Source of the DNA: Gemmatimonadales bacterium
Lineage (GTDB): Bacteria; Gemmatimonadota; Gemmatimonadetes; Gemmatimonadales; GWC2-71-9
Length of the DNA stretch: 64,000 nt
Direction of reading: 5' to 3'
Assembly: GCA_041615815.1 (NCBI GenBank)
Contig: JBFJCP010000009.1
Span: forward strand, 32,001-96,000
In this document: positions 27,867-46,784 of the stretch, piece after piece
Numbering within the stretch: the stretch's first letter is position 1
Layout: each line of letters starts with the position of its first letter
The notes under the pieces: generated by a model
What the model was told of the DNA's origin: nothing
What the model saw: only the letters and a program-made list of their open reading frames with translations
Database searches by the model: none
Program-made: the position numbers and the translations under genes

Positions 27867-28109
27867 CTACTGTGACAGCTTCTTTGGATCGCCGCTCCCG
27901 CTCTCGTCGCCCGGCGCATCGATTTGGCGGGCTGGCGGGACGCTGGTATCGGTGTCGATCTCGTTTCGCACTTCGCGGATGCTCTTCTTGAACTCGCGAA
28001 TTCCCTTGCCCATCGACTGCCCGATCTCCGGGAGACGCTTTGCTCCGAACACGAGCAGCAGCACCAGGAGGATCACCAAAATTTCCCACATGCCGAGGTT
28101 GAAGGGCAT
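27867..28109 (-). CDS. tatA: Twin-arginine translocase TatA/TatE subunit
   Basis: GMWEILVILLVLLLVFGAKRLPEIGQSMGKGIREFKK. Start at ATG 28109. Confidence 0.96.
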   Translation of the reverse strand: MPFNLGMWEILVILLVLLLVFGAKRLPEIGQSMGKGIREFKKSIREVRNEIDTDTSVPPARQIDAPGDESGSGDPKKLSQ

Positions 28110-36365: not shown

Positions 36366-37529
36366 CTACCGCGGAACTACGGTCACTCCACCGTCATATT
36401 GCTTGACGCCGGCTCCCACCGACAATTCGGGGTTACCCGGATCCGTCTGGTAGCTCCAATCGAAGATCACGAAATCCGCCCCCACGTGCGTGACTCGAAC
36501 GGCACCGAATCTCGCGAATCCATCGCCCCCGTCCATCTCGAAGACATAGCCAAACCCGGGGACGGCCTGTAACGGGTCGCGACTGTACCCCGTTTCCGGC
36601 GCGATGTCGATGGACGTGAGATCCTCGATGGGTGCTGCACTGGCCAAGGCCACCGACGTCCCGGCTCGTTCGGGCACGAAGAAGAAGTCCCCGGCAGCAT
36701 CGCGATCGATCCAGAAATCGATATCGGTGCGACCACCATCGGTCACGATACCGAGCTCGAGCGCCCCGACCTGCCCATCCCCATTCGCGTCCTGGAAGAA
36801 GCGGAAACCGCTCAGCGTCTGATCCGCCTGGAAGGCGTACACCAGCACGTTGCGGGCATCCGGCCGTGGCGTGTCCGCGAGAATGGGCGACCACAGACTC
36901 TCCCACCCTTCGATGCTCTCGGCCGAGATCCCGTAACAGCGGGACACGCCATTGGTGAGAGCCCCAACCAGAAACGCCGGCGCCACCGTCGTCCCTTCGA
37001 GAACCCAGGTGGCCCCGCACAGTCCGTCGTCCAGCGAGAACGAGGCACTGTACACGCGATATTGCCGGAATCCGTCTGGTGCGCTCAGGAAGGCATTGTC
37101 CGACCACGTCAAGTGCACGGCGCCATCGAGGGTAGTGCTGCTCGCGGTGGACGGCGCCTCGAGGCGTAAGCGCTCATCGACTTGTATGACGTTGCTGGGC
37201 ACGCTTTCGAACCCATCGAGGTCGACCGACACGACATAGTACTCGAGGTCGGGAATGCCCACGTCGTGGAAGGTCGTGGACGTCGTTGCACCCCGAAGAT
37301 CGAAATCGTCTCCGCTGTCCAGTCGCGAGTAGATGCGGTAGACCTGCAGAAACTCGCTGATCACTGGCTCCCACGAGAGCAGGATGCCGGCCGGTGCGGC
37401 CGGATCGCCGCTGGGATCCAGCTGGTATGCCAAGCCGAGCGGCGGATCGAGTTGCCCGGGCCCAACCACGGTCTGGGTGCACCCGACGGCGCTCAGGGCA
37501 CACATCGTCATCACCATGGCTCGTCGCAT
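36366..37529 (-). CDS. Lipoprotein with two fibronectin type III-like repeats
   Basis: Signal peptide with lipobox SAVG-C17. Two repeats of P...L[ST]W...YR[IV]YS...Y...G.ES..S. DANGDG acidic loop. SD AAGGAGG. Confidence 0.75.
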   Translation of the reverse strand: MRRAMVMTMCALSAVGCTQTVVGPGQLDPPLGLAYQLDPSGDPAAPAGILLSWEPVISEFLQVYRIYSRLDSGDDFDLRGATTSTTFHDVGIPDLEYYVVSVDLDGFESVPSNVIQVDERLRLEAPSTASSTTLDGAVHLTWSDNAFLSAPDGFRQYRVYSASFSLDDGLCGATWVLEGTTVAPAFLVGALTNGVSRCYGISAESIEGWESLWSPILADTPRPDARNVLVYAFQADQTLSGFRFFQDANGDGQVGALELGIVTDGGRTDIDFWIDRDAAGDFFFVPERAGTSVALASAAPIEDLTSIDIAPETGYSRDPLQAVPGFGYVFEMDGGDGFARFGAVRVTHVGADFVIFDWSYQTDPGNPELSVGAGVKQYDGGVTVVPR

Positions 37530-37677: not shown

Positions 37678-40600
37678 TCAGCGCGTCACCGATCGCTGAT
37701 CGTACTGGAACTTCACTTCCGGCTGATCGAGCAGCGTGATGAAGAAGTTGAACGCCACATTCCCGTTGGGCGCTTTGACGAATGAAAAGGTCGCGCGCCA
37801 CCGATGAAGGTCGCGGTCCAAGCGGAGCACGTGCTGTCCGAACTCTTTCGTGGTCAGATTGTACTGGGTGTTCCACGACACGGACCAATTGTGTGTAGGC
37901 GCGAAGCTCACGTTGAATCCGAGCGTGCGGGAGTCTTGGCTCGTCCCTACGATCGCACCGTCCGCCGGCGGGCGCGAGCGTCGCTCGTCGTACGAGACGG
38001 CCGTGCGAAACCCCTGTCGAGCCGGCGGGCCGCCACCCAACCCATCCAGCGTGGGGTCGAGCGAGGGACGCGGGCCGAGCGTGCTGCCCACCGGTTGCAC
38101 GAAGTCTTCGGGGCTCGGGATCCCACCCTGCCGGGGCCCGTCGTCCGGGGGCGCGTCCTTTCCCGTGATCAGCGATAGGAGTCCGGCGACCGTGCGGCCG
38201 GAGAGGCTGAACCGGGCGGAGACCGAGGTGAGAAAGGGATCGAAGCCCGTGGTATCGAACCCCACCGGTCCATCCCACAGGTCGTGGACCGTAGAGATGG
38301 TGAACCCCGGGAGGAGATCGCTGGTGAAGCGATTTGTGAGTGTCTGGGTCGTCCACCCGGTCCGGCCCTCCTGCTTCGCCTGCACGAAATCGAAGGCGAT
38401 GGCCGAGGTCTGGATCGTGAGCAGCTTGATCTTGCGCACTTGTTGCGTGCCGGTGGTGTCACCGGCCCTCGGCTTGAGCTTCGCCTCGAATGTCTGGAAC
38501 AACGAAGCACTCACCGTGTGGACGGCCGGACTCTCCCGGGTCGTCGCGCGCCCGGTGGGGTCGTTGGCGTTGGCGTAGGCTTCGGGGACGGTGGCGGACG
38601 GAGCCCACTGCCACGAGATCACGGGCGAGAATGCATGACGGATCCGATCGATCGGGCCGAAGCCGGGGAAGAACCCGAACACCGTTGGCGTGACACCGGC
38701 GCCGAACGACAGCCGCTTGCCTTGGCTGACGAACGCCCCGCTGCTGAATCGGTTGCGCAACAGAAACGGCCCCCCGGTGGTGTTTCGGATCCCCACCGAC
38801 GGCTGGATCTTCCAGGTCGACGAGAACAGGGTGGGCAGGTTGATTCCGGTATTCCAATCGATCTCGGTCCGAAAGTCCTCGGAAAAGAAGAACGTGGTGC
38901 TGTCGCCTGGACTGTCGGGATCGGGCAACGTCAGCTGTGAGGGCCGGGTCGTCTTGAAATCGCGGAGCGACAGGTCATTCTGCCAATTCCACCGGCCCAC
39001 CCGAATCGGCGTGCGAAAGCTGATAGCCGTGTTGCGGGTATCGGGAAAGAGGGTATCAGCCTGCTCGATCCCGCCGATGGGCGGGCGCAGAATCGGCACG
39101 CCGGGTGTCTGATCGAGCGTCTGCGAATTCGTCAACGAGAGCGAAGGTGACCACGTCACGGCCCGACTAATGGCGATGGGTCGTGGGGTGAGCGAGAGAC
39201 TTGGAAGGGTCTGACTCACGCCCCCGTTACTCAAGTCTTGGGATCGGCTTCCGCCGAGCGCGAGCGTGCCCCATGCAAACTGTTTGTTGAAGTTCAGCCG
39301 GCTGTCCAAGTTGGCCGTCTGCACCAGTGGATCCACCGTATTGCGTTGGACCACCCGCGCGCTCGTGGCAAAATCGACGTTGGCCGTGAAGCGCGTTCGC
39401 GCATCGAAGCTCTGCTGGTGGCTCCATTGGAGACGCATCGAGTTGGAGGCTGGCGCTCCGTCCACACTGCTCTCGAAGATCCGCGAAACGGAAACGCCTC
39501 CTGTCATGAACCGGTCGAGCCAGCGATACCGGAATTGGCCGTTGACCGCCTTGTAGTTCCCCGAGAACCAGTCGAAGGAGGCCTGCACATCGAAGTAGTC
39601 GCTGATGGCGAAGTAATACCCGATGTTGCTGATGGCCCGCTGGTAGCCTCGATTGGGGCGAATGAGATCGCTGATCCCGAAGCGCGGGACCAGGAACCCG
39701 CTGCGCCGTCCCTGCCGCATGTCTTGAAAGATGAATGGCAGCCACATCACTGGTACGTCCTGCACGTACAGCACGGCGGGACGCGCCACCATGATGGTAT
39801 TCGATACCCATTTCACGCGGCCTGCGGCAAAGTGGTAATGCGGCGTGGGAAGGTCACAGCTCGTGACCGAGCTGCCGCCCGCATAGATCCGCGTGGACGC
39901 GGAGTCGACACCGATCCCCCCGCGAAGAAACCACGTCACGCCCGATTGCACGAAACTCGTGAGCGCGGAGGCCACGATGCCGCGGTATTCGCAGGTGTTG
40001 TACTGCATCCCGGCGCCGACCAGCACCGTTCCCTCGTCGAAGAGGGCCGGCTCCCCACGTGCCAGCAGCCGACACTCGGCCTGGAGAAAGCTGACCGAAT
40101 CCGCCTCGAGGATACTCTGCTCGCGTTCCACCAAGGCGGAGCCACTCAGGACCACTTCCCGCGAGAGGCCGAAGAGCGTGATGCTGTCCGCCGCATAGCG
40201 GATCCCACTGTAGCCCGCGAGCTGCAAGAGCGCCTGGAGCACGGAGTCTGACGCCGGAAAGGTTCGCGAGGGCTCGGAAGGCAACCCCAGGCGTCGTGCC
40301 GCCGCGGTGTCGAGCGGTCGCGGCACGCTGTCGCCGGGCAGCTGGCCGCGAGTCACACTGTCTGGTGGCGGTGGCTGTGCCGGGTCTTGACCGAGCACGG
40401 TGCTGGGCCAAAGACCGGTGAGGGCGAGCACGACGATCGCCGCGCCGATCTTCGGTTCCTTGCGCCGTCGCCGGACGATGCGGGCGATCAGGATGCCGAC
40501 CTCGTACAGCACCACCAAGGGCAGCATCATCATGATCATCGAAATAACGTCCGGCGGGGTGATCAGTGCCGCCAACACGGACCCGATGACGAGCGCAATG

Positions 40601-41193
40601 GGTCGCTGCCGGGCGAACGTGTCCGGTGAAATCAAGCCCATCGCCGAGAGCAGAACGATGAAGATCGGGAGCTGGAACACGAGCCCAAACGCAATCATGA
40701 ACTGGAGTGCGAACCCCAGATACTCGTTGGCCGTGATGATCGATTCGAGATCCGCCCGCTGGAAGCGCAGCAGGAAGCGCAGGGCGGCCGGCAGCACCCA
40801 GAGGTACGCCATCAGCACACCGGAGACGAAGAGCCCGACCCCCGCGATGAGCGTGGGCACGATGTACTTGCGTTCGTGCGCGTACAGCGCCGGCGCGAGG
40901 AAGGCCCAGACCTGCGCAAAGACCACCGGCGCCGCCAGCACGAACCCGATGATCACCGCCAACTTGAGGGTGAGCAGGAACGCTTCGGTGGGCCGGGTGA
41001 TGTAGAGTTTGCCGTCCGGCAAGTACGGAAGGATGGGCTCTTTCAGCAACCCCAGCACGTCGAACTGCTGCACCACGACGAACCCGATGATCGATCCGGC
41101 CACGAGGGCGCCGAGACTCCACAGAATCCGCCACCGCAGCTCTTCCAGGTGGTCGAGGAAGGGCATCTCGCCCTTCGATTTCGTGGCGCTCAT
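37678..41193 (-). CDS. tatC/lptD: TatC-LptD fusion protein (Tat translocase subunit C joined to LPS-assembly outer-membrane protein)
   Basis: aa 1-240 are TatC (MPFLDHLEELR, WAFLAPALY..E, FQLP, ITPPD, LYE). aa 241-268 resemble a signal peptide. The rest is LptD-like (TSCDLPTPHYHF, VPVMWLPF, RRSGFLVP, beta-barrel, RDLHRW). No stop codon lies between the parts. Confidence 0.88.
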   Translation of the reverse strand: MSATKSKGEMPFLDHLEELRWRILWSLGALVAGSIIGFVVVQQFDVLGLLKEPILPYLPDGKLYITRPTEAFLLTLKLAVIIGFVLAAPVVFAQVWAFLAPALYAHERKYIVPTLIAGVGLFVSGVLMAYLWVLPAALRFLLRFQRADLESIITANEYLGFALQFMIAFGLVFQLPIFIVLLSAMGLISPDTFARQRPIALVIGSVLAALITPPDVISMIMMMLPLVVLYEVGILIARIVRRRRKEPKIGAAIVVLALTGLWPSTVLGQDPAQPPPPDSVTRGQLPGDSVPRPLDTAAARRLGLPSEPSRTFPASDSVLQALLQLAGYSGIRYAADSITLFGLSREVVLSGSALVEREQSILEADSVSFLQAECRLLARGEPALFDEGTVLVGAGMQYNTCEYRGIVASALTSFVQSGVTWFLRGGIGVDSASTRIYAGGSSVTSCDLPTPHYHFAAGRVKWVSNTIMVARPAVLYVQDVPVMWLPFIFQDMRQGRRSGFLVPRFGISDLIRPNRGYQRAISNIGYYFAISDYFDVQASFDWFSGNYKAVNGQFRYRWLDRFMTGGVSVSRIFESSVDGAPASNSMRLQWSHQQSFDARTRFTANVDFATSARVVQRNTVDPLVQTANLDSRLNFNKQFAWGTLALGGSRSQDLSNGGVSQTLPSLSLTPRPIAISRAVTWSPSLSLTNSQTLDQTPGVPILRPPIGGIEQADTLFPDTRNTAISFRTPIRVGRWNWQNDLSLRDFKTTRPSQLTLPDPDSPGDSTTFFFSEDFRTEIDWNTGINLPTLFSSTWKIQPSVGIRNTTGGPFLLRNRFSSGAFVSQGKRLSFGAGVTPTVFGFFPGFGPIDRIRHAFSPVISWQWAPSATVPEAYANANDPTGRATTRESPAVHTVSASLFQTFEAKLKPRAGDTTGTQQVRKIKLLTIQTSAIAFDFVQAKQEGRTGWTTQTLTNRFTSDLLPGFTISTVHDLWDGPVGFDTTGFDPFLTSVSARFSLSGRTVAGLLSLITGKDAPPDDGPRQGGIPSPEDFVQPVGSTLGPRPSLDPTLDGLGGGPPARQGFRTAVSYDERRSRPPADGAIVGTSQDSRTLGFNVSFAPTHNWSVSWNTQYNLTTKEFGQHVLRLDRDLHRWRATFSFVKAPNGNVAFNFFITLLDQPEVKFQYDQRSVTR

Positions 41194-41211: not shown

Positions 41212-42009
41212 TCAGCGACCGGGACTGTTCAGCTTGCTACGAGCGAGCTGCGCCTCGTCGGAGCGGGGATAACCGGAGACGACGCGCAGATAGTAGAGCC
41301 GCGCAGCCTCGAGGTCGCCCTTTCGCTCGGCGATCAGGCCGAGCTTGTAGAGCGCCGCCGGCGCCCGTCGGGAATCCGGGTACTTCTGCTCAACCACGTC
41401 GTACTCCGCCCGGGCCGAGTCGGGGTTACTCTGATCCCAGGATTCGCCCATGAGGTACTGCGCGTCTGCGGCCAGGGGGTGGGTAGGATGATCCTCGAGG
41501 AGCTTCCGGAATCCGGCCCGCGCGGTCTCCGGACTGCCCCGCCGGAGTTGTTGCAGCGAGAGCTCGTACAGTTCCTGCGCCCCCAGGGTGGGACCCACGG
41601 GGGTCGGCTCCTGCCCCCGCCCTTCGGCCGCACCGGAGCGGTCAGCGGGCGCCACCGGTGACCCAACGGAGGCCTGCGCCTGTTGGCGCTCCTGCATCTG
41701 ATTGCGAAGCTCCGAGAGTCGCTGCTGACTCTGTCCGGTGAGTTCCTGAATCTGGAGGAGCTGCCGCTGGACCTCCGTCATGTCCGTGCGCATGTCACCG
41801 TACACCGTCGCGACGCGGCGCTGCTCGATCGCCAAGGAATCCAGCAGCCGCAGGATCTGGTCCAGTTGCATGACCTGGAGCGAGTCGGTCCGGGCCGACT
41901 CCTCCCCCAGGCGCAGCACTTCCCGCTCTACACGACGAACGTCGCCCTTGAGGGCACAGCCACTCAGGGCGACGCTCGCCGCCAGCCAGACGATGGTCCG
42001 GTGCGTCAC
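41212..42009 (-). CDS. cpoB: Tol-Pal system protein CpoB/YbgF (coiled coil + TPR)
   Basis: Lipobox LSG-C, coiled coil, TPRs (AQYLMGES, ALYKLG, YPRSDEA); follows pal. Start at GTG 42009. Confidence 0.88.
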   Translation of the reverse strand: MTHRTIVWLAASVALSGCALKGDVRRVEREVLRLGEESARTDSLQVMQLDQILRLLDSLAIEQRRVATVYGDMRTDMTEVQRQLLQIQELTGQSQQRLSELRNQMQERQQAQASVGSPVAPADRSGAAEGRGQEPTPVGPTLGAQELYELSLQQLRRGSPETARAGFRKLLEDHPTHPLAADAQYLMGESWDQSNPDSARAEYDVVEQKYPDSRRAPAALYKLGLIAERKGDLEAARLYYLRVVSGYPRSDEAQLARSKLNSPGR

Positions 42010-42626
42010 ATTCCGGGTGGCCGGGTCAGCTGGTCGCCGCCGGCAATGATCATGAACTCGTCGCGTCGGTTTCTGGCCCACGCATCTTCGTTACTCCCGG
42101 GATCCACCGGTTGTTCCTCCCCCATGGAACGAACGTTGATCCGACTCGGATTGATCCCCCGGTCCACGAGGAATTGGCGGGCCGAGACGGCCCGGCGTTG
42201 TCCCAGCGCGAGGTTGTACTCGTCCGAGCCGCGCTCGTCGCAATGCCCCACGATCTCGATGCGCAGATTGGGATTGGCCTGGAGAATCCGCAGCTTCTGC
42301 TCGAGGATCCGCGTGTCGTCACCCGGCCGAATATTGGAGCGGTCGAAATCGAAGTGGATCCGCTCGGCAACCATCGCCCGGACCGCCTCGGACGCAGCCC
42401 GCGCCGCCGCAATGGAATCCTCCCGAGCACGGCGACGAGCTTCCTCCGCTCGGGCAATGCTGTCGCGCCGCGCTCGCTCGGCGGCGGCGATGGAGTCCCG
42501 GATGCGCTGCTCCCGGGCAATGGAGTCGGGGTCGGGCCCGACGGCCACTTCGGGCTGCCCACCACCGCATGCGGCGGCAATCAAGATCACGGCAAGCCCC
42601 GCGGAGATTGAAAGGCTCAGTCGCAT
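42006..42626 (-). CDS. pal: Peptidoglycan-associated lipoprotein Pal (OmpA-like domain)
   Basis: Lipobox AAA-C, IHFDFD, GHCDERGSDEYNLALGQRRA, NRR. SD AGGAG precedes ATG 42626. Confidence 0.95.
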   Translation of the reverse strand: MRLSLSISAGLAVILIAAACGGGQPEVAVGPDPDSIAREQRIRDSIAAAERARRDSIARAEEARRRAREDSIAAARAASEAVRAMVAERIHFDFDRSNIRPGDDTRILEQKLRILQANPNLRIEIVGHCDERGSDEYNLALGQRRAVSARQFLVDRGINPSRINVRSMGEEQPVDPGSNEDAWARNRRDEFMIIAGGDQLTRPPGM

Positions 42627-42639
42627 CGTCACTCCTGCC

Positions 42640-44004
42640 TTAAGGGTTCCTTGAATCGGGAATTGGTGGCGACCAGGCCGGGAGGCGCGCCCCGCCGACC
42701 GAGGTCAGTTGTCGAATCCGTCCAGTGTCCGTATCGATGATCCACACCTGGCGCGAACCAGTACGATTGGAGATGAAGGCCAGGTGCCGACCGTCGGGTG
42801 CCCACGTTGGATCTTCATTGCGCCCGGCACTGGTGAGCTGCCGCACGTCCCGAGACCGAGCATCCATGAGAAACACTTGCGGGCTGCCGGCGACATCCCG
42901 GTGGAAGGCCACCTGTGTCCCATCAGGCGACCACTCCGGTGCGTTCGAACTCCCCGTCACCCCATAGTCGAACGGGGCGTACAGCTCCTGCCCGGTTCCG
43001 TCCACGGACATCACGTAGATCTGGGGTAGACCCGCCCGGGTCGACACGAACGCGATTCGTCGGCCATCCGGACTGAACGTCGGGGAAAGGTTATCGGAAA
43101 ACCGCCCCACCGTCAAGCGCTGTAAACAACAGTCCTGCGCGAGGTTATAGGTGTAGATGTCCGTTCCGTCCTCCCCGCTTCGGCTAAAGGCCAGCAACCG
43201 GCCATCGGGAGAGAAGCCGGCGGCGAAGTTTAGGTTACTCTGGCTCGGCGGAACGACCTGCCGTCGGCCGCTCTGCGCATCATACAGCACGAGCTGCCCG
43301 AGACCGCTCTGCAGTTCCGTGAACACGAGCCGACGGCCCGATCGGTCCCACGCCGGCGAGAAGGCGTTAGCGTCGGACGCCGAAATAGGTGTTGCCGCCG
43401 CACCGTCCGCGTCGACCGTGAAGAGCCGCTTCCCCTGTATGAACGCGATCCGTGTCGCCGCAATCCCCGGAATCCCCGTGGCTCCCCGCACCACCGCATC
43501 CGCCGCCCGGTGCACGGCCATCCGGAAACCAGGATCACCCACATCGACCACGGAGACGCGCGTCTCGAGGCGCAGCGTCTCGCCGCGCACGTCGTACAGA
43601 TTGACCCGCAACTCGCTCGAGTCCGGCGCCATGAGGACGCCCACGGAATAGTCCGCTCCCAGGGCGGCGTAGAGCGGGTAATTCACAAAAACCTCGCCCG
43701 GCGACTCCGTGGCCGCGCGCTCCGACATGCTACTCAGCCCGATGATCAAGCCGTCCCCCTCCGGGAGCGTGATCACCTCGAACTGGTCGCTGAAATCCAA
43801 GTCGCGCGTGAGCATCGCGCGCACCGAATCCAGCAGCGCCGTGCGCGGTCCGCCCAGGACGAGCATCCCCGGGCGCATGCCGGGTGTATAGGTAATGCCG
43901 AGCCGGACGCCTCCCTCCACCGGCGGAATCGTGTCCTGGGCTCGCCCGCGCGAGACGGCTCCGACCAGGAGGAGGCCGACCGCCACCACCATCGCGCGAC
44001 TCAT
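42640..44004 (-). CDS. tolB: TolB (PD40 beta-propeller)
   Basis: Signal peptide, TolB_N-like DLDFSDQF, TRIAF, repeated P.[WF]SPDG. Start at ATG 44004. Confidence 0.92.
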   Translation of the reverse strand: MSRAMVVAVGLLLVGAVSRGRAQDTIPPVEGGVRLGITYTPGMRPGMLVLGGPRTALLDSVRAMLTRDLDFSDQFEVITLPEGDGLIIGLSSMSERAATESPGEVFVNYPLYAALGADYSVGVLMAPDSSELRVNLYDVRGETLRLETRVSVVDVGDPGFRMAVHRAADAVVRGATGIPGIAATRIAFIQGKRLFTVDADGAAATPISASDANAFSPAWDRSGRRLVFTELQSGLGQLVLYDAQSGRRQVVPPSQSNLNFAAGFSPDGRLLAFSRSGEDGTDIYTYNLAQDCCLQRLTVGRFSDNLSPTFSPDGRRIAFVSTRAGLPQIYVMSVDGTGQELYAPFDYGVTGSSNAPEWSPDGTQVAFHRDVAGSPQVFLMDARSRDVRQLTSAGRNEDPTWAPDGRHLAFISNRTGSRQVWIIDTDTGRIRQLTSVGGARLPAWSPPIPDSRNP

Positions 44005-44705
44005 CACCGCACCTTGTCCGGATCGAAGAAGAAGCTCACGGGGAGTACGTCGGCGGGGTATCCGGTGGGGAGCGGTCCAAAGGCGCCCGCCGTCCCAGCG
44101 GCTTCGATAGCCCCCTGGGCCTCCAGGTCGAATCCGAAGTTCCCAGACCGACGAACGAAATGCAGGTTGGTGATCGAGCCGTCCCGGTGTACGAAGAACA
44201 TCACCTCCGCCCGAAAACTCTGGGTGCCCGTGGGACGCCGCCAGCGGCGGTAGATCTGCGCGACGATGTTGCGGAGATACTCGGGATAGGGGAACTCGAC
44301 CCCCTCGGTCTTCACGGTCGCCACATCGGTCCCGGTGGACGGCTGCGCACCCGGAGCCAACTCCTCCGTGGGGGTCGTCCGCGGCGCGGGTTCCCGCCTC
44401 GTGTCGGTCTTGGCGGGCGGCGGCGGCGTCTGCGCCACCGACGTCCGTCGCGGCTGCTCCGTTTGGGTGGGTGCGGGCCGCTCGGCGGGACGCTCCACGG
44501 CCTCTGGTGCCCGCCGCTGCTGTGGATCGGGACGCGGCGCGGCAACCAACTCCACGCGGTACACCGGAGGCACCGTTCGCCGCCCGGCCGAGGGAGACCA
44601 CACCGCCACCGCCATGACGATCCCGTGCAGCGTGAGCGTGCCCGCCAGCGCCACCCCACGGCCTCGCGCTTCTCTCCGGCGCTTGACCATCCACGCCACG
44701 CTCAT
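44004..44705 (-). CDS. tolA: TolA/TonB-like energy transducer
   Basis: N-terminal TM helix with His, Pro-rich linker, TonB_C-like domain (SGNFGFD...FGPLP). Confidence 0.8.
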   Translation of the reverse strand: MSVAWMVKRRREARGRGVALAGTLTLHGIVMAVAVWSPSAGRRTVPPVYRVELVAAPRPDPQQRRAPEAVERPAERPAPTQTEQPRRTSVAQTPPPPAKTDTRREPAPRTTPTEELAPGAQPSTGTDVATVKTEGVEFPYPEYLRNIVAQIYRRWRRPTGTQSFRAEVMFFVHRDGSITNLHFVRRSGNFGFDLEAQGAIEAAGTAGAFGPLPTGYPADVLPVSFFFDPDKVR

Positions 44706-45130
44706 CGTCCCACATTCTCCGCCTCGGCCACCAGCCCGACGTCGCCCACACCCGTCGTGCGCATCACCGCCAACACGCGCACCACTTGACCGTAACTGAC
44801 CCGCTGATCGGCCCGGAGGTAGATGCCGCTCGGTTGTCGCGCCGACACGATGGCCGGAAACGTGGCGCGGAAGTCCTCATACGAGAGTGCGGTCTCGTCC
44901 ACGAAGATGCGTCCTTGCCGATCTACCGAGACAACGAGACCCTGCCGCGGCTGCAACGGCCTGGCCTCCGCCCTCGGAAGCTGCACGTCCACACCACCCT
45001 GCATGATGGGTGCGGTGATCATGAAGATGATGAGCAGGACGAACGCCACATCCACGAGCGATGTGACGTTGATGTCCGACACCAATGGCAGCTCGCCATG
45101 ACCCCGCAGACCACCCCGCGCCAAACTCAT
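44702..45130 (-). CDS. tolR: TolR/ExbD
   Basis: INVTSLVDVAFVLLIIFMITAP, LRAD..V.YG. Confidence 0.92.
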   Translation of the reverse strand: MSLARGGLRGHGELPLVSDINVTSLVDVAFVLLIIFMITAPIMQGGVDVQLPRAEARPLQPRQGLVVSVDRQGRIFVDETALSYEDFRATFPAIVSARQPSGIYLRADQRVSYGQVVRVLAVMRTTGVGDVGLVAEAENVGR

Positions 45131-45837
45131 ATCCGCCCCTCTCTGGCCATCGTGCCTACGATCTCATGGGCGAACCCCTCCAGCTCACCGGCGAAAATCC
45201 CGAGGCGGTTGACGAAGAGATTGTACGCGATGATGGCTGGAATGGCGACGGCGAGACCGAGAACCGTCGTGATCAGCGCTTCCGCCACTCCCGGGGCCAC
45301 AGCCGCGATGTTGCCCGATCCCCCGGCCGCGATCCCCAAGAACGCGTCCATGACACCCAGCACGGTTCCGAGTAGCCCGAGCAACGGACTCACCGACCCG
45401 ATGGTAGCCAGCCACGGAATGAACTGCGCCATCAAGTCCCGCTCAGCGCCTATCTCCTTGGCGAGCACCATCTTCAGGGCTTCCAACTGCGTGGGCGAGA
45501 GCACGTTTTGGAGCTCCCGCTCCTCCTGGAGCGCACCGGGACGAAGCTCGGAGAAGAAGTTGACGCCCTCACGTAACAACCGGCTGTAGGGAGACGGCGC
45601 GAGTTTCATGACTACGTGATACGCCTCCTGGAGCCGACTTGTGCCCTTGAGCGACTCGAAAAAGCGGTCGCCTCGCTTGCGGACTCGCCGGAACTGGAGG
45701 GCCTTGAGCAAGATCAGGAACCAACAGATCAGGGAAAACGCGAGGAGCACCCCGATGACCGCCTTCGTCGCCGGGCTCGAGACCTCGATCAGCTCCCAGA
45801 CACTGCTAGGGAGCGCTCCCCCGACCTGGAAGATCAC
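45127..45837 (-). CDS. tolQ: TolQ/ExbB/MotA proton channel protein
   Basis: LATIGSVSPLLGLLGTV, PGVAEALITT, AIPA..AYN. Start at GTG 45837. Confidence 0.93.
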   Translation of the reverse strand: MIFQVGGALPSSVWELIEVSSPATKAVIGVLLAFSLICWFLILLKALQFRRVRKRGDRFFESLKGTSRLQEAYHVVMKLAPSPYSRLLREGVNFFSELRPGALQEERELQNVLSPTQLEALKMVLAKEIGAERDLMAQFIPWLATIGSVSPLLGLLGTVLGVMDAFLGIAAGGSGNIAAVAPGVAEALITTVLGLAVAIPAIIAYNLFVNRLGIFAGELEGFAHEIVGTMAREGRI

Positions 45838-46784
45838 GCCGCCACCTCGATGATCCACTCGTACGTCTGACGCAGGCCGTCGGCGAGGTCGACGTCCGGG
45901 CGCCACTTGAGCAACCGTGCGGCCTTCTCGACGCTGACGGAGCTACGGAGTAGCTCACCCGGCCGGGCCGCTGCATGCTCGATGGGGACCGTGGCCCCGC
46001 TGGCGCTCCGCAGCGTTTCGGCGAGCGTCAGCACGCTCGTCTCGACGCCGGTGCCGACGTTGAAGGCAACGTCATCGATGGTCTCGATCGTCGGGACGGG
46101 CCAATGCGTGGCAGCTACGTTGGCTCGCGCCACGTCCTCGACGAAGACGTAATCCCTGGTCTGGGTCCCATCGCCATAGACGGTGAGGGGACGTCCTTCG
46201 CGAAGCCGGCTCGCAAAGATGGCAACGACGCCCGCTTCCCCATGAGGACTCTGTCGGGGCCCGTACACGTTCGCATATCGCAACGACACGACTTCCATGC
46301 CGTGGAGCTGGGCATAGGCTCCGAGATAGAACTCCGATGTCAACTTGCTGACCCCGTACGGCGAGACGGGGAGCTTGCGCGCCGACTCGCGATGGGGCAG
46401 CTGATCGCTCTCGCCATAGACGACCCCTCCTGAGGACGCAAACACCACGCGTCGAACGCCACCCGCGCGTGCGCCTTCCAGCAGGTTCAACAACCCCATG
46501 ATATTGACGCGCGCATCGAGCTCCGGGTCGCTCACGGAGATCCGCACATCCATCTGGGCCGCATGATGGTTGAGCACCGAGAACCCGCCCGTTTGCAAGA
46601 GCTGCCTCGCGGTGGGCGACCCAATGTCGGCGTGCACGAACGTCGCGCCCGCGGGGACGTTCTCCGATCGCCCCCCGGTCAAATCGTCAATCACTGTCAC
46701 CTCGTATCCGGCGGCCAGGTAGGCGTCCGCAACGTGCGAGCCGATGAAGCCCCCACCACCGGTGACCAATGCTCGCTTGGTCAT
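45834..46784 (-). CDS. NAD-dependent epimerase (UDP-glucose 4-epimerase-like)
   Basis: TGGGGFIG, HAAQMDVR, YGVSK, NVYGPRQ..HGEAGVV. Start at ATG 46784. Confidence 0.9.
   Translation of the reverse strand: MTKRALVTGGGGFIGSHVADAYLAAGYEVTVIDDLTGGRSENVPAGATFVHADIGSPTARQLLQTGGFSVLNHHAAQMDVRISVSDPELDARVNIMGLLNLLEGARAGGVRRVVFASSGGVVYGESDQLPHRESARKLPVSPYGVSKLTSEFYLGAYAQLHGMEVVSLRYANVYGPRQSPHGEAGVVAIFASRLREGRPLTVYGDGTQTRDYVFVEDVARANVAATHWPVPTIETIDDVAFNVGTGVETSVLTLAETLRSASGATVPIEHAAARPGELLRSSVSVEKAARLLKWRPDVDLADGLRQTYEWIIEVAA

Follow-up and report, generated by a model that had tools for sequence, protein, structure and literature searches.

The 64,000-nucleotide (nt) stretch of DNA analysed here, called the window below, belongs to Gemmatimonadales bacterium GCA_041615815.1 (contig JBFJCP010000009.1, 32,001-96,000 of the forward strand). 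It carries an open reading frame (ORF) at 37678..41193 (-) in which tatC, encoding a subunit of the twin-arginine translocase (Tat), runs on into an lptD-like gene for the lipopolysaccharide (LPS) translocon. The frame starts with ATG and continues through 1171 codons with 0 internal stops, as a preliminary description of this DNA had stated, and encodes a single chain of 1171 amino acids (aa). In this one frame the analysis confirmed an entire TatC, followed by a junction that resembles a signal peptide and by an LptD-like β-jellyroll and barrel. The genome is 95.7% complete, and the fused ORF is both its sole TatC match and its sole LptD-like match.

The TatC part, claimed from the start to be complete within aa 1-240, lies at 40474..41193 (-) and has six transmembrane (TM) helices according to Pfam, NCBIfam, a profile search and the AlphaFold2 model. 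Scanning with domain hidden Markov models, as had been advised, gave a match to PF00902 over model positions 1-208 of 208 (aa 14-225, 40519-41154 (-); E 2.5e-63, 214 bits against a cut-off of 25.1), and the NCBIfam equivalog TIGR00945 (tatC) scored 201 bits against a cut-off of 132.7. A profile for structure search, built from 58 homologues that carry the same fusion, matched the solved TatC 4b4a with E 7.9e-63 over query residues 10-249. Together, profile, Foldseek and model helices identify the six-helix TatC fold. Compared with solved TatC structures (4B4A, 4HTS, 9DZZ), the match is full-length and above curated cut-offs, the identity is 33-38% and the fold is the same, but the fused protein has about 930 extra C-terminal residues.

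The same scan supported the proposed LptD-like nature of the C-terminal part, with a match to PF19838 (LptD_2; E 2e-41, 142.6 bits against a cut-off of 22.5, best stretch aa 469-671). PF04453, the model for classical LptD, matched neither the fused protein nor anything else in the genome. Classical LptD equivalogs of NCBIfam reached about 25 bits, far under their cut-offs of at least 683, and the C-terminal half is therefore not a classical proteobacterial LptD. The profile of 58 homologues matched the solved LptD 7omm with E 3.6e-9 over query residues 333-658. In the AlphaFold2 model of the fused chain (mean predicted local distance difference test (pLDDT) 71.6, mostly 70-90 over aa 331-1168), the TatC helices are followed by a short helix (250-260), a β-jellyroll and a barrel. 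The β-jellyroll, of the type of the LptD N-terminal domain, spans aa ~331-491 (39721..40203 (-); model strands, 7omm profile match, Foldseek), and the large outer-membrane β-barrel spans aa ~520-1168 (37690..39636 (-); Pfam, AlphaFold2, Foldseek). The top 15 Foldseek hits were full-length LptD structures with TMt 0.50-0.59 (8h1s_A with E 2.7e-26 and TMt 0.56; 5iv9_A with TMt 0.59), and below them came solved TatC chains at 33-38% identity (9e01_A and 4b4a at 36-38%). The architecture given by AlphaFold2 and Foldseek, an N-terminal β-jellyroll and a very large barrel, is thus shared with solved LptD (8H1S, 4Q35, 5IV9, 7OMM), whose structures are the top fold matches. The fused LptD differs from these in belonging to LptD_2 (PF19838) and not to PF04453, in an identity of only 8-13% and in a long Pro-rich N-terminal extension.

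This extension is a low-complexity linker rich in Pro, Asp, Ser and Arg at aa 269-330 (40204..40389 (-)), and it would form the N-terminus of the predicted mature LptD. It ends in the conserved motif DTAAARRLGLPxxPSRxFPxxDS, in which P305, P308, P313 and D316 are invariant in the 58 sequences. Over the whole length, these 58 fused proteins have a mean column identity of 60%, with many invariant residues in both halves. A linker rich in Pro, Asp, Ser, Thr and Arg lies outside the Pfam LptD_2 model and was found in fused and standalone LptD_2 alike.

The junction between TatC and LptD

The junction comprises aa 241-268 (nt 40473-40390) and reads RRRRKEPKIGAAIVVLALTGLWPSTVLG|QD, in agreement with the preliminary description. 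It can be divided into RRRRKEPK / IGAAIVVLALTGLW / P / STVLG|Q, with V at position -3 and G at position -1. The basic cytoplasmic loop and n-region (aa 241-248, RRRRKEPK) is encoded at 40450..40473 (-). The h-region and c-region (aa 249-268, IGAAIVVLALTGLWPSTVLG) are encoded at 40390..40449 (-) and align with the signal peptides of standalone LptD_2 proteins. All features of a signal peptide are present, namely a basic n-region, a hydrophobic h-region (about 7-15 residues by the definition used), a helix breaker and small uncharged residues at -3 and -1. The predicted site for signal peptidase I is V-L-G|Q, between G268 and Q269 and between nt 40390 and 40389.

Cleavage sites were called by a rule-based script that searched for small-x-small|Q, with a shuffle control. 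In 119 of 120 fused proteins such a site lies 11-20 residues past the start of the hydrophobic core, with Q at +1 in 119, and the median net charge before the hydrophobic run is +4 in the fused family. Position -1 is occupied by A (100), G (14) or S (5) and position -3 by A (69), L (24), G (12), V (7), S (5) or T (2), while positions -2, -4 and +2 vary freely. When the 24 residues around the site were shuffled (200 shuffles), the site turned up in 25 of the 120 proteins on average and in 37 at most. It was also present in 41/41 fused genomic loci (40 species representatives and the window) and was kept in six divergent fused clusters, down to 36% identity.

Standalone LptD_2 proteins (900-1040 aa) provide the direct comparison. 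From residues ~5-15 onward they align to residues ~247-255 of the window's protein, and 27 of their N-termini are ordinary signal peptides that end in A-x-A|Q. In a standalone comparison set of 70 proteins of 880-1060 aa the site was found in 63. The seven misses consist of one truncated fused protein, two proteins with Met at -3, one with Pro at -2, two that are N-terminally truncated and one with a long N-terminus. Ala occupies -1 in 84% of fused versus 89% of standalone proteins, and -3 in 58% versus 56%. These alignments show homology between the junction and the N-terminal signal peptides of standalone LptD_2, in support of the embedded signal peptide of the preliminary description. As judged from the conserved positions, the junction is still under a signal-peptidase-type constraint.

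Distribution of the fusion and changes between fused and split forms

A word-indexed protein search scored 8000 candidates, of which 1386 reached E ≤ 0.001. The best 120 of these 1386 matches, the window's own protein included, all measure 1033-1202 aa, are 53-100% identical and contain both PF00902 and PF19838; they were drawn from NCBI, JGI, ENA and Logan assemblies. Where they have a name it is only 'twin-arginine translocase subunit TatC' or 'Tat protein translocase TatC', from Gemmatimonadota or Gemmatimonadales metagenome-assembled genomes. Because annotation calls these ~1170-residue proteins only 'TatC', LptD looks absent in gene-content surveys. A 50% clustering of 1.84 billion proteins contained six separate full-fusion clusters, down to 36% identity (P0035, P0121, P0126, P0127, P0131 and P0133; five confirmed by Pfam).

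For the genome scans, a TatC open frame of ≥1000 aa was counted as fused. In the window's family (f1) a TatC match was found in 138 of 141 genomes, and 109 of these are fused, in 70 of 78 genera; nine further frames measure 451-999 aa, at least five of which reach a contig end according to their coordinates, and 20 measure ≤450 aa. It had been considered that all relatives might carry separate tatC and lptD genes, but relatives in this family are mostly fused. In the sister family f2 (131 genomes, 123 with a TatC match) two genomes of different genera are fused (G047 and G459), and a third, G227, came from a phylum scan of 401 genomes (393 with a TatC match). Families f3-f12 have no frame >420 aa among the 150 phylum matches listed. 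These tallies take in genomes flagged as unpublished: G457 and G181 (fused) and G406 (short) in f1, G475 and G476 (unfused) in f2, and G097 and G057 in the phylum scan.

The two genes are also neighbours where they are not fused. Among 20 tatC loci across the phylum, an lptD-like gene directly follows in 16, in frame (fused) in four and in another frame in 12. Eight of these 12 have a 4-nt overlap between the lptD start and the tatC stop (GTGA type), three have the start 7-19 nt downstream, and for one (L020) no canonical start was found nearby. In the remaining four of the 20 loci (genus g21 and G025) lptD is on a different contig, as a frame of 935-992 aa. Unfused neighbours also occur within f1: the pair overlaps by GTGA or ATGA in g160, is separated in g148 (ATG 13 nt after TAG, with AGGAG before the ATG), and is adjacent in g162 and in G001 (g2), whose congener G177 is fused. 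In G007 the tatC locus is cut by the contig end. The closest known counterparts of the fused gene are the split pairs of other Gemmatimonadota (L004, L008, L009, L013-L016, L019-L023, L064-L067, L070, L071 and L074), which resemble it in their genes, gene order, type of tol-pal neighbourhood, A-x-A|Q signal peptide and Pro-rich mature N-terminus. They differ from it in that a stop ends tatC and lptD restarts at an overlapping GTGA or ATGA or a few bases downstream, whereas in the window one frame runs through both parts and LptD lacks a separate start codon.

Within one genus, short indels separate the two states. In g28 the split genome has 38 extra nt that supply a stop, an ATG and a new basic n-region; in g2 the GTGA is missing from the fused genome, which carries an insert of 19-25 nt instead. 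Ahead of the signal peptide, f2 fusions retain a TatC tail of ~30 residues and f1 fusions have a basic loop of 8-12 residues, which fits independent events. A quick maximum-likelihood tree (IQ-TREE, LG+G4, 424 columns) was made from 71 LptD moieties. Its 49 fused rows comprise three loci and 46 proteins selected out of 126 fused ones, and its 22 unfused rows comprise 16 loci and six proteins selected out of about 70 standalone ones. No fewer than 12 changes between fused and unfused states are required on this tree, eight of them forced by starred branches. With shuffled labels the average requirement was 18.9 changes, and none of 500 shuffles came down to 12. The unfused G112, g160/g162 and g148 nest inside fused clades, and the fused g54, P0127 and P0131/P0133 nest among unfused rows. 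The LptD tree thus implies a minimum of 8-12 switches between the fused and the split state; being unrooted for gain and loss, it does not separate fusions from fissions. The fusion probably originated when small indels merged an adjacent, translationally coupled tatC-lptD pair, and it has been gained or lost repeatedly. Such a history is to be expected if the mature TatC and LptD are the same whether the genes are fused or split.

Some split or interrupted loci have unusual features of their own. In genus g162, tatC and lptD are adjacent in different frames in L065 (G442, nt ~160-230) and L067 (G415, nt ~170-240), and in both no ATG, GTG or TTG gives LptD an n-region and hydrophobic core. A CTG overlaps the TGA stop in G442 (CTGA), and G415 lacks even the CTG; non-canonical reinitiation or ribosomal frameshifting are possibilities for the g162 LptD. 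In L068 (G419, g166) tatC and lptD share one frame, with an in-frame TAA at nt 714 in the LptD N-terminal domain; the open frame measures 438 aa and homology (67% identity) continues beyond the TAA. This stop may stem from a nonsense mutation or from an error of assembly, or it may be read through. In L020 (G058, family f6) lptD follows tatC in another frame at ~nt 1223 with a signal-peptide-like segment (…RLRLRTLLALAALIGGLGATETARA), before which no ATG, GTG or TTG was found within the listed range.

Probable processing of the fused chain

The ORF has the structure of a polyprotein, with a polytopic N-terminal partner, an internal signal-peptide-like segment and an exported-type partner in one frame. 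We consider it probable that the product is a natural polyprotein that is cut by signal peptidase I, and most likely LptD's own signal peptide, embedded in the junction, would still serve as the cut site between TatC and LptD. TatC is a protein of six helices with both termini inside, and its C-terminus is cytoplasmic. Firstly, TatC would be inserted co-translationally. Secondly, the short basic loop RRRRKEPK would remain cytoplasmic, because TatC ends in the cytoplasm. The next 20 residues, the ancestral LptD signal peptide, would then insert as a seventh span with its N-terminus in and its C-terminus out, and would start the Sec-dependent export of the ~900-residue LptD part. Lastly, signal peptidase I would cut after V-L-G268, mature LptD would proceed from Q269 to the outer membrane, and TatC would keep a 28-residue C-terminal remnant. 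If processed in this way, the TatC part would differ from known TatC by an extra span of 28 residues and a periplasmic C-terminus. The genome has two S26 signal peptidase matches. We infer cleavage because the site is conserved and because lineages switched repeatedly between fused and split genes.

Several observations weigh against this. The junction is longer in the fused proteins than in the standalone ones (h-region plus c-region median 21 versus 18 residues) and its hydrophobicity is higher (3.00 versus 2.74), which tips the balance slightly towards a segment that stays in the membrane. As relatives of each other, the 120 fused proteins are less independent than the conservation counts suggest, and each site is the call of a rule-based script. 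Furthermore, starred branches obtained by a quick method are less reliable than those of a careful search, which bears on the number of state changes.

The longer and more hydrophobic junction would suit a permanent seventh TM helix. In that case a single uncut chain would span the envelope, with TatC in the inner membrane, the ~60-residue Pro-rich linker across the periplasm and the LptD barrel in the outer membrane. The linker (aa 269-330) is predicted to be disordered and, by arithmetic, could reach roughly 200 Å when extended. Still, this arrangement, which the preliminary description had given as its alternative, seems unlikely, and several findings have weakened it. The small residues at -3 and -1 are kept in 119 of the 120 fused proteins at frequencies like those of the standalone forms, and we know of no role for this pattern beyond recognition by signal peptidase. 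The Pro-rich linker is also present in standalone LptD_2 and is therefore not an adaptation specific to the fusion. Moreover, at least 8-12 changes of state, together with an unlinked lptD in some members of the family, are hard to square with an obligatory link. The pLDDT is <50 across aa 245-293, which includes the helix 250-260, and the AlphaFold model therefore gives no information on the packing of a seventh span against TatC.

A related but rather improbable variant is that the chain stays uncut or partly uncut and a whole fraction ties Tat to the LPS translocon. This fraction would be a trans-envelope protein joined through the ~60-residue Pro-rich linker. In a milder version of this idea cleavage does take place, and the fusion is adaptive instead of neutral. 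TatC would then serve as a leader that targets the ribosome co-translationally to the Sec translocon, which would keep the ~900-residue barrel precursor out of the cytoplasm, and TatC would function with its seventh helix retained.

LptD might instead be made separately from a start within the ORF, with the fused chain minor or irrelevant, and the preliminary description had named such an independent start as an outcome that would speak against the polyprotein. Some fused loci do have an in-frame ATG just before the core (1-14 codons upstream in 7/41), and a Shine-Dalgarno-like motif accompanies an n-region start in 5/41 (the g28 genomes are one example). Counting ATG, GTG and TTG, an n-region start is found in 16/41 fused loci and is absent from the other 25/41, the window among them, and a start codon is thus not conserved. 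In the window the preliminary description had noted the lack of an ATG between the last TatC helix and the h-region; this holds, and there is no in-frame GTG or TTG either between TM helix 6 and the start of the hydrophobic core. The only canonical start nearby is a single in-frame GTG (V255) inside the hydrophobic stretch, which would give a 14-residue peptide without a basic n-region. A near-cognate start, the ATC codon of I249, has AAGGAA six bases ahead of it, and non-canonical initiation at a low level may therefore occur at this locus. The T/K-I-G motif conserved at this position closes TatC in unfused relatives (...SIGT*, ...TISGT*) and is therefore not a relic of a start codon. As a general route, internal initiation was rejected for most loci by the absence of an n-region start in 25 of 41, and as the main source of LptD it is quite improbable.

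Assembly was checked with DNA contigs of four public runs from three studies, which cover 40000-40900 with 0 inserted or deleted letters, and the junction indel that had to be looked for was therefore not found in independent data. One of them, a contig of 894 nt from run X6, whose study and year differ from those of the probable source samples, spans 40031-40900 with four substitutions and 0 gaps; its sole substitution within the junction (40426) is, by codon arithmetic, a synonymous Leu change. A ±1 change of frame at a 4-nt overlap is an easy error, but an assembly or frameshift artefact or a non-functional read-through was rejected and has a negligible chance of being correct, given the indel-free contig of an independent study across the junction, the fusion in 109 of 138 genomes and 70 of 78 genera of the family, more than 100 protein clusters of different sources that hold it, its position as the genome's only TatC and only LptD-like gene, and the 60% mean column identity with invariant residues in both halves of 58 fused proteins.

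The closest mechanistic parallel known to us is FbcH of Bradyrhizobium japonicum, the precursor of cytochrome b and cytochrome c1, which is reported to be cut at an internal signal peptide (reportedly the work of Thöny-Meyer and colleagues, about 1989-1991). It likewise joins a polytopic inner-membrane protein to an exported partner by way of an internal signal peptide, all within a single chain, and signal peptidase reportedly separates the two. The FbcH products reportedly share one complex and one membrane and their cleavage is said to have been shown, whereas the fused gene described here serves unrelated machines in two membranes and its cleavage is predicted. No description of a TatC-LptD fusion was found in the titles and abstract openings of openly accessible literature on TatC, LptD and Gemmatimonadota. 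What appears to be new is a probable internal-signal-peptide polyprotein that joins two unrelated machines of two different membranes.

That one frame encodes subunits of two unrelated envelope machines located in different membranes is unexpected to a specialist. If the chain is cut, it would be a rare natural bacterial polyprotein, signal peptidase I would have to be able to act on a signal peptide placed internally, behind a six-helix membrane protein, and TatC would have to tolerate an extra C-terminal span. Since close relatives have the genes fused, adjacent or overlapping, or unlinked, they form a natural experiment. Two questions it could address are whether a giant outer-membrane protein benefits from membrane-localised or co-translational synthesis, and what accounts for the neighbourhood of tatC and lptD throughout the phylum.

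Neighbouring genes and TatC paralogues

On the same strand and directly upstream of the fused gene lie TolQ-, TolR-, TolA/TonB_2-, TolB-, Pal- and TPR/CpoB-like genes, and the position next to a tolQRAB-pal-cpoB-like cluster had been recognised correctly. A TPR protein (CpoB/YbgF-like, 41212..42081 (-)) ends 18 nt upstream of the fused ATG. It is preceded by an OmpA-domain protein (Pal-like, 42006..42632 (-)), a PD40 β-propeller protein (TolB-like, 42640..43947 (-)) and the genes for the TonB_2 C-terminal (TolA-like), ExbD/TolR and MotA/TolQ/ExbB proteins (44004..45906 (-)). The genome's only TatA/B/E-family match is at 27951..28097 (-), ~10-13 kb from the fused gene, and the earlier statement that tatA is about 10 kb away is therefore upheld. 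On the other side, 149 nt downstream of the fused gene, a 387-aa ORF (36366-37529 (-)) with a lipoprotein-like N-terminal signal (…MCALSAVGC…) had no Pfam match.

Elsewhere, the genome encodes an LPS pathway, as shown by LpxC (E 3.5e-83) and two adjacent LptF/LptG genes. PF03968 (LptA/LptD_N) had no match in the genome, a null result that carries no weight because the same model also misses the Bacteroides control.

A second TatC match was found in just three fused f1 genomes (G045, G409 and G451). Second, standalone TatC paralogues without lptD behind them are located at G045:C1:2127927-2128565, G047:C2:141632-142270 and G409:C13:632-1273. In G033 and G235 (L072 and L073) the standalone paralogue without lptD was the only TatC found, and their congener G129 is fused. 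Over its C-terminal part, the standalone paralogue is ~38-46% identical to the window's TatC.

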